A stretch of DNA of 55,727 bases, counting the filler, from Sluysia triapertura (taxonomy: Eukaryota): NCBI GenBank assembly GCA_046118255.1. It is 4 parts of 4 records of this genome, joined end to end, with 100 filler letters (N's around TTAATTAATTAA, not from the genome) between each part and the next. Parts side by side here need not be neighbours in the genome. Positions count along the whole stretch, not along the records: positions 1 to 15,148 come from JBJNIA010237664.1; positions 15,249 to 27,105 come from JBJNIA010163482.1; positions 27,206 to 39,569 come from JBJNIA010116306.1; positions 39,670 to 55,727 come from JBJNIA010211698.1. One strand, given 5' to 3'. Shown here piece after piece: positions 911 to 52,887 of this stretch. The position numbers and the translations under genes were made by a program. Position 1 is the first letter of the stretch. Each line of letters begins with the position of its first letter. The notes under the pieces are model-generated. The model saw nothing but the letters and a program-made list of their open reading frames with translations. It was not told where the DNA came from and did not search any database.

Positions 911-2026
911 ATGTCATTAACAATGAAACAATATTATCATCAAATAATCAAAGCTGCCAAATCTTGTATTAAGCTACAACTAGAGCACCAATTAGTTATT
1001 TGTGTAAAGAGTTACACTCATCCCAGATGGTTCTCAAGCCAAATGGATGCTATATTCTGTGGTAGCATATCTTGTGGTATATATTCCACCAATAATGCAG
1101 AATCTGGCCAATTCATTTCTAACGTTAATAACTGTCAACTATTGATGGTAGAAAATACACATTATCTTGATAAATTAGCACCAGTAACTTTAACTATGAT
1201 CATTGATGAAAATTGTAACATTCATGTTGTTGCAGCTTATGGTACTCAAACCGGTATAAAACAACTTATAAAGCGAAGCAGAGGCGACACAATTCATGTA
1301 ACTAATGTTGATAGAGTAAAGCAGAGTAAAGACGATGCAATCCATGTAATATGCTTAATTAGTACAAGAGAGAGTAAAGAAGATATAACCGATGTAAATT
1401 ATGTAAATAGAGTAAAGCGAAGCAGAGGTGACGCAATTGATGCAACTTACGTTGATGAAGTAAAGCAGAATAAAGATGACACAATTAGCACACGGCGTAC
1501 AAGTAATGTCAACTGGGATAAATACAATACAGTTGATACAATCCATGCAAGCAACATTAAACGAGGTAACGAATTTAACTTTATTAATTTAACTATCGAT
1601 TTCGATTATATTATATATTATATCTTTTATTGTTTTATTTATAGGTCAAAGTCTATCAGGCCCGGAGCTATGTCGACAGAAGTACAGCTGAACAAGAACG
1701 CGAATGACCAACTCTGCTATTTGCTAAATTTTAAAATTTTAATAAATGTTTCATATTATCCACCTTGTTCTTGTAATTTGCTTTTCAATTATGAATCATA
1801 TAAGACAATACTAGACATAACTCGTATTAACAATAAAATAGATAAGAAATATTCTAAATTAAACAAAGATCAAGAGTTTCATAAGGCCCTTTATAAAATT
1901 TATTTCAATAACGCTACAACTAAGTCGCACGACGACAAAGCTAAAGTTGAATTTCCAAACTTACAACATACCTCCATAGAAAGGTATTTTAACATTAACC
2001 CTATATGTATAATTAAGTCTTATTAA
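911..2026 (+). CDS. Chimeric 371-aa ORF: ACSBG/bubblegum-type acyl-CoA ligase fragment (first ~85 aa), then peptide repeats and an unrelated tail
   Basis: YYHQIIKAAKSCIKLQL...HPRWF...AIFCGSISCGIYSTNNAESGQFI...CQLLMVEN matches the ACSBG pattern YY..C.KAAKSLIKLGL...WF...AI..GG..VGIY.TNSAEACQY....NILLVEN. The AMP-binding motifs are absent. Confidence 0.7.
   Translation: MSLTMKQYYHQIIKAAKSCIKLQLEHQLVICVKSYTHPRWFSSQMDAIFCGSISCGIYSTNNAESGQFISNVNNCQLLMVENTHYLDKLAPVTLTMIIDENCNIHVVAAYGTQTGIKQLIKRSRGDTIHVTNVDRVKQSKDDAIHVICLISTRESKEDITDVNYVNRVKRSRGDAIDATYVDEVKQNKDDTISTRRTSNVNWDKYNTVDTIHASNIKRGNEFNFINLTIDFDYIIYYIFYCFIYRSKSIRPGAMSTEVQLNKNANDQLCYLLNFKILINVSYYPPCSCNLLFNYESYKTILDITRINNKIDKKYSKLNKDQEFHKALYKIYFNNATTKSHDDKAKVEFPNLQHTSIERYFNINPICIIKSY
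1265..1568 (+). repeat. Degenerate coding minisatellite (K[R/Q]S[R/K][G/D]D[T/A]IH-type unit)
   Basis: AAAGCGAAGCAGAGG[C/T]GAC and GTAAAGCAGA[G/A]TAAAGA[C/T]GA recur, and the translation repeats KRSRGD / KQSKDD / KQNKDD. Confidence 0.75.
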
Positions 2027-2388
2027 AATTTGGTTTATTTAGAGTGTATATCTATTAGTTTATAATGATCTTGAATTAATAAAACAATTTATAATAGGTA
2101 AAACAAATTATAGTAGTTTTAATAATAATTAAAATGCAATAATGTACGCTATTTTGGGGGTATTATGATAATTTATTACTTGAAATAAATTTATAAAATT
2201 AATTAATTTATTAGATTTCTTTAATAAAATATTGAACTTTTGTTTTACGTCGTAACACTTTACTAATAAAAATTTTTTAATAATGCTTGGATATGCTACG
2301 ATCATCTCTTCATTTGATCCTGTAAATAAAAATACTAAAATATAATCATCACCAACGTCAATTATTAGTTGTATAATAAAAATATAAT

Positions 2389-2589
2389 TTACTTTAAAAA
2401 GTTTTCATTAATAGAGGAGAACGGATGCAGTTCGTTTACAGAATGAGCATAAGTACAGTTTTCCCCGTATTTCTCGCATTGACCATTGTGGACAATACAA
2501 TATAAACATTGTCCTGTTTTGTAGTAAAACAAAAGATCTTGTTGCAACTTATCATGTTTTTTTACTTGGATAACATGTCGCGTATTCAT
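2389..2589 (-). CDS. Unkempt-type CCCH zinc-finger fragment (possible exon or pseudogene)
   Basis: LFYYKTGQCLYCIVHNGQCEKYGENCTYAHSVNELHP resembles Unkempt LRYYKTGxCIHETD..G.C.KNGLHCAFAHG..DLR. A possible donor GTAAAT lies at ~2392 and an acceptor at ~2321. Confidence 0.65.
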   Translation of the reverse strand: MNTRHVIQVKKHDKLQQDLLFYYKTGQCLYCIVHNGQCEKYGENCTYAHSVNELHPFSSINENFLK

Positions 2590-50829: not shown

Positions 50830-51287
50830 TCGAATCTTTTTGAATCACTGGATCAAATGGTATGCTAGCTCGACTGACATTAAAATCATTAGCAGCACCA
50901 ATAGAATAATTTTGAATGTCAGATAAGATTGTCAAACTTGATAATAGAGAATTGATTATATCATAGTGGTTGTTGGGATCTGCTGGATAACCGAGACTAT
51001 CTCTGAACTCGTAGAAACTGGCAATACTGACAATTATTCCCATACCTGAAGCATTCCCCAGTTTGGGTTGTTTGATATAAACAAAGACCCATCTTGTAAT
51101 TATTGTCGTTGTGGAGAAACTTAAAACAGCCAGTTCTTGATCTTTTATTTGTCACATCTGTTTTTAAAGGTGTTACTTTACTTGTCATGACATATGAATC
51201 GACATCTACTATATTTGGAATAACTAATTTATGAAAAGCTAAAAATATATTAATAGAAAATTCTGTAACTTGATCATCAACTGTCAT
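50830..51287 (-). pseudogene. Second Unkempt-type CCCH gene copy, frameshifted in the last zinc ligand
   Basis: GCFKFLH...NYKMGLCLYQTTQTGECFRYGNNCQYC continues as SFYEFRD in another frame, consistent with a small deletion that removed the His. Confidence 0.6.
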
Positions 51288-52718
51288 AATTAATCTATGA
51301 ATACTTTTATTTTAGTTTGCAATTTTATAATGCAAAGAACAAACATGATTTAAACGAAATTGTTTAGACTGAGGTGTATAAAATCGGTTAATCAAAATTT
51401 TTGTACTAATGTTTTGTACTTGTACTAATTTAACATAAATGTCATTATTTGGATAATTCAAAATATTTATAACTTTCGACAGTATCTTGAATGTTTCACG
51501 AATCATATTTTATTTTTACTGGTTAATCATTCTAATCTTTATAATAATTCAATACATCTTCAGATCTATCTTTTATTTGCTTGCCATGAACAATATAACC
51601 AATTTTTAAAGGTTTTGATGGAAAAATGAGTAAAATGTTATGGAATATGATTTTATGAGCGATATGTTTCATTAAGTATGAAATGTTTTGAATTAATTTT
51701 TAAGTATATCTTTGATGATTTTCGATGTTGAATATGTTTTTGGTGTTATGAAATTTTATGTTTAGAATGTTTGGAAGTATTAAGAATTATGAAATGTTCT
51801 GAAAGGTGATTTTGTTGTACATTGTTGAAATAAAATTTTAAAATAGTGGGTTGACCGCCAAACTAATACTACTTTTCGGCAATTTCGCCATCGTATCTGA
51901 AATTATAAAATAAATAAATATAAAAATTTATGCTAATTAATTACTAAGTTAAAAATTTGAAAAAAAACTAGTTAAAAATTATGCAAAATTATTTATGGAA
52001 TAATTTATGTCAACGATGAATTCAATTATATAATTCAACATAATTATAAAGCAAATCATGCAAAAACACTTATCAATGGAGCTGCTATCGAATGTTCTTC
52101 TGAATTAATTTATAATAAAAACGTTATTAAATTTTGTTTTCGTGTTTTCAAAGGTATTAAGCCTGTTTTGTTTCTTAATTCATGGAAGTTTAAAAGTTTA
52201 ATTCGTTAAGCAATTTTGAATACAATTAGTACATAAAAATAGCTAAAGTTTTAAATAGATTTAAGTCCTCCAAAGGTATCTTAATATTTAAAGATTTTTC
52301 CAAACCTTACTTAAGTCTTCATAAAGGTCTCAATATCCTAGAAAAATCCTTGGAACTCGAAGGTGTTCTTCGGTTTCAAAATGGTTATAAACATTCGTAC
52401 CTTTTAACTTATTTTCTATGCACTAATTAGACTGCTCCAAGAATACATTTAATTTGTTTTGAGTTTAATGTTCATCTCCAGATATTTTTAAACGATGATA
52501 GTGTTTATTGTTGTTTTACTTATGATATATCTAGCTAATAACTATTAATACCTAACACTGACGAATAAGGTTTTCTCAATCAAAATAATGAAAATAGATG
52601 ATTACTGTCCTGAAAAAATAAATGGTAGCACCGTATCTATGAGGCATTGTGGTTGCTATGAATGGACTAAAAGAAAGTCACTTTCACGAATAAAATGACC
52701 AATTATTTTTCCATTTAG

Positions 52719-52887
52719 ATTTTGCAACACAATGGAGAAGGCTTGTGTGGATACTGTCGACAACGGTCGGATGACGAAAGATTTGGCAATTTGCATACAC
52801 GGAATGAGCAAGGTACAACCTAATCACTATTTGAACACAGTCGATTTTCTGGATGCTATATCTGAGCAATACAATCGGACAAAGTAA
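52719..52887 (+). CDS. IDH: Isolated last exon of NADP-dependent isocitrate dehydrogenase (IDH1/IDH2 type), missed by the ORF track
   Basis: After acceptor TTCCATTTAG the frame reads FCNTMEKACVDTVDNGRMTKDLAICIHGMSKVQPNHYLNTVDFLDAISEQYNRTK*, carrying the MTKDLA.CIHG and YLNT.DFLD motifs. Confidence 0.88.

Follow-up and report, generated by a model that had tools for sequence, protein, structure and literature searches.

Gene pieces in a repeat-rich stretch of the Sluysia triapertura genome: probable independent partial duplicates, two of them heading long open frames

A stretch of 55,727 nt of Sluysia triapertura DNA, called the window here for its whole length and with positions counted along the joined stretch, holds seven partial gene pieces between positions 911 and 52887: a piece of an AMP-binding enzyme, two Unkempt-type CCCH fingers, the beginning of a Rab29 gene, a possible SAM domain, the beginning of a Dopey gene and the last exon of an NADP-dependent isocitrate dehydrogenase (IDH). 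The question raised by this locus is whether one mobile element collected the pieces, as proposed in a first-pass annotation of the sequence, or whether they arrived separately. The reading that we favour, with some reservation, is that they are independent partial gene duplicates of mixed age and route, mostly decaying, two of which are now open chimeric frames.

Most of the pieces are real. The window (GC about 25%, AT-rich animal DNA) consists of five contigs (1-15148, 15249-27105, 27206-35466, 35682-39569 and 39670-55727) with an intact PLP/M6-family gene among them. Three identical 100-nt linkers, which we read as artificial joins, and one gap of 215 N connect the contigs. Contig 1 carries two of the pieces and contig 5 the other five; 24.5 kb, four gaps and intact genes separate these two contigs. 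Rab29, Dopey, the IDH last exon and both Unkempt-type fingers hold up as identified; the assignments of the AMP-binding and SAM pieces are less secure, as given below. That the rest of each gene is missing was borne out, since a Pfam scan (455 references for the 454 frames, out of 535, that are free of stops over at least 35 residues and not of low complexity) and queries with IDH and Rab29 homologs delivered no further exons of the seven genes in the window. The same scan showed no Helitron, transposase or viral family in the frames of the window, and Rfam and ARAGORN found nothing over its length.

Most unusual is the 560-codon open reading frame (ORF) headed by the Rab29 piece. The head (40187-40492) matches Pfam Ras at 7e-28, with Rab-7L1/Rab29 as best named matches. 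Its alignment to the Rab29 profile stops at residue 112, the head ending at about 40492 ahead of the G4/G5 motifs, and the piece does not show the complete G1-G5 set together with C-terminal prenylation cysteines; Rab29 homologs used as queries in the window match the head alone. Eight of 47 near-invariant residues are changed, including the Trp before DIAG. Among 33 candidates in a parent search 20 match, the best of them (P0006) at 78% and the named ones at 50-61%, and a scan of metagenomes found, in 110 stretches, 8 loci, each a distant Rab at 32-48%. Compared with P0006, its closest relative, the head carries 10 derived changes versus 2, with 4 unpolarised. Both the Rab and the Dopey pieces had been said to start at the native N-terminus; this stands for Dopey, which begins with its first Met, but in the Rab piece the codon opposite the Met of P0006 is ATA, at 40187, and the ORF has its ATG two codons upstream. 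The copy continues through the point where P0006 departs from the alignment into an apparent intron, which hints at an RNA copy; P0006 is not established as the parent.

The Rab tail is free of stops over 455 codons (chance 6.5e-17), and no frame longer than 153 codons arose when the window was shuffled 60 times. Its period-3 signal exceeds the no-stop null (p=0.002), and the GC of its fourfold sites is 25%, with 22% in the PLP/M6-family gene. Homologs of the tail were found neither among 1.84 billion representatives (0 matches) nor, in usable form, in Atlas, nor in viral contigs, all libraries from which the organism may be missing, and a single-sequence fold was uninformative (mean predicted local distance difference test score, pLDDT, 32). 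Other origins of the tail were tried and dropped: a decayed Rab C-terminal half (-0.3 bits against the Rab29 profile), a hidden tandem repeat (after a repeat test) and an antisense shadow of a long interspersed nuclear element (LINE) reverse transcriptase or a Gypsy integrase, a resemblance taken by eye (0 matches in PDB, Pfam and NCBIfam).

The 377-codon ORF is the second frame of this kind. Its head is assigned to the AMP-binding family by Atlas features (0.95), with Pfam reaching only E 0.16 and no match in PDB; a place in the ACSBG subfamily is presumed, and only the AMP-binding family is supported. After the head 276 codons are free of stops (chance 4.5e-11), and the tail has no match among viral contigs. 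A 79-nt GT...AG intron-like stretch within the ORF (1566-1644) is open in frame; its removal by splicing would soon end the frame. Upstream of the ORF lies a cluster of CAGCC/CCAAT-like motifs, possibly a promoter, which has no second occurrence in the window.

Simulated neutral decay, which takes head and tail as one age and its rates from the comparison with P0006, keeps the 560-codon Rab frame open in no more than 0.1% of runs with 0.06-0.08 changes per site; with 0.03 changes it stays open in 0.5-2.5%. For the AMP-binding ORF, a simulated frame of 371 codons survives in about 1% of runs or fewer at the higher rates and in 4-11% at 0.03. An open frame across the junction beyond chance and neutral decay is clear for the Rab ORF and less strongly indicated for the AMP-binding ORF. 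All three in-frame fusions reported earlier, the two above and a 188-codon ORF that ends in the SAM piece, exceed the maximum of the shuffles.

The remaining pieces are in very different states. Dopey (47258-47632) matches Dopey_N at 6e-29 over positions 1-115 of the 306-position model, unbroken over these 115, and carries TGA stops at 47456, 47576 and 47633; none of 86 candidates matched in its parent search, with proteins of more than 2000 residues outside that search. It is unusual for AT-rich DNA that these stops are all TGA, and the SLC12 exon of the window also ends in TGA; because of the latter there is no sign of a changed genetic code. The SAM piece is marginal (SAM_1 E 0.02-0.05; no SAM match in PDB). 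The 5' part of its ORF is not coding-like (Asp+Glu 0.29 of expectation), and the stop-free chance of this 5' extension, 3.5e-4, is weaker than for the Rab and AMP-binding tails. Degenerate minisatellites, said to follow the AMP-binding and Dopey pieces directly, are indeed present, though at a distance of about 75-95 nt and about 200 nt. Downstream of Dopey, an exon-like piece shows a weak armadillo likeness (E 6e-4 in PDB, for designed armadillo repeats and as a sum over repeats). After it, part of the Rab-ORF tail recurs as a diverged copy (41537-41814 versus 48209-48480, score 77; maximum of 200 shuffles 59). Copies of an AT-rich repeat, here called Y, enclose this 2.3-kb patchwork of SAM, Dopey, 46-nt minisatellite, exon-like piece and Rab-tail-like piece.

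Finger 1 of the Unkempt type has its C-x9-C-x6-C-x3-H pattern intact and corresponds to finger 3 of Unkempt in 5elh. The two fingers are identical at only 46 of 78 nt (59%) and therefore separated long ago; their proportions of synonymous and nonsynonymous differences (pS and pN) are 0.59 and 0.36, from only 26 codons. A frameshifted upstream Unkempt finger ahead of finger 1, noted by eye only, was rejected after negative searches. The IDH exon has none of 27 near-invariant residues changed and starts at an AG acceptor, the point at which the relative P0025 has an intron-like insertion. Ten of 24 candidates match in its parent search (best 71%). Other IDH exons were absent from the window, including 13 kb of gap-free contig upstream, with one full-length bacterial IDH and five longer eukaryotic ones (346-460 residues) as queries. 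The exon lies within a GC-rich island (52601-53150), and its GC at third codon positions is 0.47 compared with about 0.2 in PLP, SLC12, Rab and Dopey, a distinct codon context.

Traces of a common carrier were sought in the flanks and ends of the pieces. In 91 pairs of 700-nt flanks of the seven pieces, 6 lie above the 95th percentile of random window pairs with about 4.5 expected; two of these are overlaps of the same DNA and four are AT-rich low complexity. Helitron-type ends, defined after the available part of PMC3789558 as a 3' hairpin followed by CTRR, with insertion ahead of a T, number 3 (21749, 23873 and 27994) versus 0-2 in 8 shuffles, with none within 12 kb of any piece. Terminal inverted repeats (TIR) with target-site duplications (TSD), the hallmark of Pack-TIR elements according to the available part of PMC8277862, gave 11 candidate rows versus 1-10 in 6 shuffles, in a scan that missed the evident hAT-like element of the window. 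One row, 52623-55484, encloses the IDH exon and has an A-rich TSD, and three others extend to Rab but cross gaps on the way. The sequence of long terminal repeats (LTR) expected on both sides of an LTR-mediated retrocopy was not found: there is no LTR-like direct-repeat pair around Rab in 35682-55727, only Y surrounds the SAM-Dopey block, and the reverse transcriptase remnant of a Gypsy-like element, 2.3-3.0 kb away from Rab, SAM and Dopey, is one-sided. Poly(A) near the pieces is not above background, the best 15-mers within 400 nt holding 8-12 A with a background median of 11.

A single unrecognised non-autonomous element of Helitron, Pack-TIR or LTR type, responsible for all pieces or at least for the SAM-Dopey block between the Y repeats, is quite unlikely in our estimate. 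It would be consistent with a patchwork of four unrelated pieces enclosed by Y, with the nearby Gypsy-like remnant, with partial, 3'-truncated and tail-less copies as expected of LTR-mediated retroposition (in the available part of PMC5131818), with the TIR+TSD candidate around IDH and with a module found at both 4.3-4.6 and 49.3-49.4 kb, 1.8 kb from one Unkempt finger and 1.4 kb from the other. That module, however, precedes one finger and follows the other, and Y is a tandem AT-rich repeat rather than a pair of single collinear LTRs. The flanks share nothing above chance, and Helitron-type ends and TIR+TSD rows occur at about shuffle level, the latter in a scan of limited sensitivity. The CCAAT and hairpin modules suggested earlier as part of the carrier do exist, and two CCAAT foldbacks fold at z -6.6 and -5.7, possibly as miniature elements or promoters, but the CCAAT modules are confined to 3.0-8.0 kb and the hairpin family to 10.1-15.7 kb, and five of the seven pieces lie on a contig that has neither. 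Because decay states and apparent routes differ widely and the flanks share no termini above chance, the pieces do not appear as one element. The Y bracket, the 4.3/49.3-kb module, the IDH TIR+TSD row and the tail-less 3'-truncated copies hint at a single local capture event rather than at an element that extends over 911-52887.

Several pieces might instead be parts of working genes, either lineage-specific and fast-evolving ones (a single-finger CCCH gene, a Rab-headed orphan) or an IDH whose last exon sits behind a very long intron. The undecayed IDH exon with its acceptor and stop, finger 1, intact in its short ATG-started frame and preceded at 470 nt by a CCAAT module, the excess of pS over pN in those few codons and the coding-like Rab tail agree with this, yet Dopey is broken, the Rab head is without its Trp before DIAG and without G4/G5, and no other IDH exon lies in the 13 kb of gap-free contig upstream or elsewhere in the window, whose PLP gene has an intron of 32 nt; we regard this reading as unlikely. 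Little credence is given to junctions that are assembly or amplification chimeras of a fragmented draft, an explanation that concerns chiefly IDH, undecayed and within its GC-rich island. The scaffold does contain three identical linkers and one gap of defined size, the last exon of SLC12 is also severed from its gene, 1.4 kb from a linker, and amplification chimeras are described for small animals in the available part of PMC11660948. Against this, all seven pieces lie inside gap-free contigs, the many substitutions and stops in the Rab, Dopey and second Unkempt pieces exclude misjoined copies of working genes, and a misjoin alone would not yield 455 stop-free codons.

Independent partial duplication, the favoured reading, would have gathered the pieces in gene-poor, repeat-rich stretches beside dead hAT-like and Gypsy-like remnants without a single carrier. 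The identities, states of decay, lack of shared ends and frame lengths are observed; the routes, as well as selection and expression, are inferred. Rab29 and Dopey would most likely have come through RNA copies cut short at the 3' end, for which template switching by Gypsy elements is a plausible though unshown agent. The IDH exon may have arrived as genomic DNA with its acceptor, or may be a misplaced exon of a working gene, and the two Unkempt-type fingers would be old. The Rab29 and AMP-binding frames were apparently kept open while their parental motifs eroded, making them candidate young chimeric genes. Selection may have acted on the tails as components of the fusion, or the tails may be orphan genes to which a head was added; the frames would be chimeric genes under both readings.

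Several observations weigh against this account. Protein searches found no parent gene for any piece. P0006 is one 85-residue protein, possibly from another species with its own intron, and the RNA route is without a hallmark, neither poly(A) above background nor an LTR pair around Rab being present. The period-3 signal of the AMP-binding tail is borderline (p=0.056). The decay simulation presumes head and tail of one age and P0006-derived rates, and heads alone survive in 4-54% of runs. The patchwork bracketed by Y suggests one local capture event and not four independent ones. A bolder reading, which we find doubtful, would make the region a gene nursery, in which truncated housekeeping-gene copies continue in frame into hundreds of repeat-derived orphan codons and selection holds the frames open as the parental motifs erode; it would include a GTPase-dead Rab29-headed protein of 560 residues, a 377-residue protein with a piece of an adenylation enzyme and a coding minisatellite, the Y patchwork as a trace of shuffling, and possibly an undescribed repeat that captures filler. 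From the nursery of the first-pass annotation there remain two pieces heading frames far longer than chance or neutral decay allows; a single non-autonomous element behind the pieces is unsupported.

The closest described class is that of gene fragments with recruited sequence, as presented in the available part of PMC5460883. There, partial duplicates, chimeric genes and recruited-sequence genes of Drosophila yakuba likewise link a 5' gene piece with unrelated sequence downstream, from which a new transcription unit may result. Those duplicates arise by tandem duplication beside the parent and are polymorphic; the window has no parent, its pieces are older and the stop-free additions reach 276 and 455 codons. 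LTR-mediated retrocopies (available part of PMC5131818) are also partial, mainly 3'-truncated, without poly(A) or TSD and sometimes of several parents, and a Gypsy-like remnant is near the pieces here, but they have the two-sided LTR-element sequence not found in the window, and IDH retains a splice acceptor. Pack-TIRs and Pack-MULEs, in what is available of PMC8277862, resemble the locus in host pieces within a genome with TIR elements, of which the window has one hAT-like copy; in contrast, the TIR scan, of limited sensitivity, placed no piece between TIRs of any recognisable element beyond the level of chance, and all that the hAT-like copy carries is its own broken transposase region. The gene-capturing Helitrons of the silkworm (available part of PMC3789558) share several unrelated gene pieces in one region and the presence of hairpins. 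They differ in that here no hairpin+CTRR end is near the pieces, the scanned frames showed no Rep/helicase remnant, and the strong hairpins, which are CCAAT-bearing foldbacks, do not share a contig with five of the pieces.

Coordinates of the pieces and of the other features are given in Table 1.

Table 1. Gene pieces, repeats, resident genes and mobile-element remnants of the window
Feature	Positions	Strand	Remarks
CAGCC/CCAAT-like motif cluster	380..870	+	upstream of AMP-binding ORF; 500-999 bin holds 7 CAGCC and 6 CCAAT versus means 0.22 and 0.85
Chimeric ORF, 377 codons	893..2026	+	AMP-binding head 911-1195, coding minisatellite of 48-nt units 1269-1485, orphan tail
Unkempt-type CCCH finger 1	2392..2589	-	66-codon ATG-started frame; Pfam zf-CCCH_UNK 1.3e-10 (2392-2560)
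CCAAT foldback modules, about 70-85 nt	6280-6350, 7910-7995; related 3030-3150		inverted CCAAT boxes; each near an (AAT)n tract
Hairpin family, three copies, 70 nt	10152-10224 (-), 15365-15434, 15670-15744		78-83% alike; folding weak, z -1.2 and -1.7
hAT-like DNA transposon, dead	20627..22572	+	no host piece; 14-nt TIRs with 2 mismatches; 8-nt flanks 6/8 alike
PLP/M6-family host gene, intact	24411..25032	-	32-nt intron; Pfam Myelin_PLP
SLC12 transporter last exon	25484-25711	-	upstream exons missing; linker gap 1.4 kb on
Chimeric ORF, 560 codons	40181..41863	+	decayed Rab29 head, 455-codon orphan tail; Pfam, named matches, frame statistics
Ty3/Gypsy-like reverse transcriptase-RNase H remnant, decayed	43300..44300	+	Pfam RT_RNaseH_2 E 7e-4, below cut-off
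Repeat Y, AT-rich, left copy	45926..46192	+	75-86% alike to 48501-49094
ORF, 188 codons	46149..46715	+	possible SAM piece at its end (46554-46680)
Dopey N-terminal pseudogene piece	47258..47635	+	contiguous from first Met; three TGA stops; Pfam
Degenerate minisatellite, 46-nt unit	47830..47940	+	about 200 nt beyond Dopey piece
Exon-like piece, GC-rich	48100..48390	+	AG...GT borders, then diverged copy of part of Rab-ORF tail
Repeat Y, AT-rich, right copies	48501..49094	+	tandem units of 85-140 nt
Unkempt-type finger 2	50830..51110	-	final His absent at apparent frameshift; Pfam E 2e-4 and 8e-5 (51000-51110)
NADP-IDH last exon, undecayed	52712..52887	+	splice acceptor; IDH2 C-terminus 1e-15 (52714-52887)

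The putative hAT-like element has broken frames and no transposase family match in a library search. The reverse transcriptase part of the Gypsy-like remnant was recognised by eye. At 29400-30300 a further stretch resembles, by eye and without a Pfam match, an integrase-like remnant of an LTR retrotransposon. Introns near 32 nt, such as that of the PLP/M6-family gene, are reported in reduced parasitic animals in the available parts of PMC6543705 and PMC13644364. The contig that follows the linker beyond the SLC12 exon has a gene on the opposite strand; a multi-exon gene for a Lys/Glu-rich coiled-coil protein is seen at 27430-29180 (+), its family matches being compositional noise only. Broken coding-like frames of 96 and 103 codons at 8100-9100 (+), the second Asp/Glu-rich, are without a family match and possibly represent a decayed gene. 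Beside the 215-N gap a GC-rich island (34830-35400, up to 50% with a background of about 25%) contains exon-like pieces bounded by AG/GT and has no match in Pfam, PDB or NCBIfam; it may represent another stray piece of a gene, or DNA of foreign origin. A tRNA-like sequence seen by eye at 55670-55727 (-) is cut by the window end, and neither ARAGORN nor Rfam made a call there. In a word search of sequencing runs, one run (X1) contains 0.66 of the words of 43500-53400 and possibly represents the sample of origin, and no RNA run is listed.

As dead fragments the pieces would be ordinary and would matter mainly as annotation traps. An unknown capturing element would matter more, and there is little sign of one in the window. 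If transcription and conservation of the two long frames were found, the frames would be young chimeric genes with additions (276 and 455 codons) of unusual length for recruited sequence. The locus would then offer a testable case of a broken GTPase or enzyme piece seeding an orphan protein.

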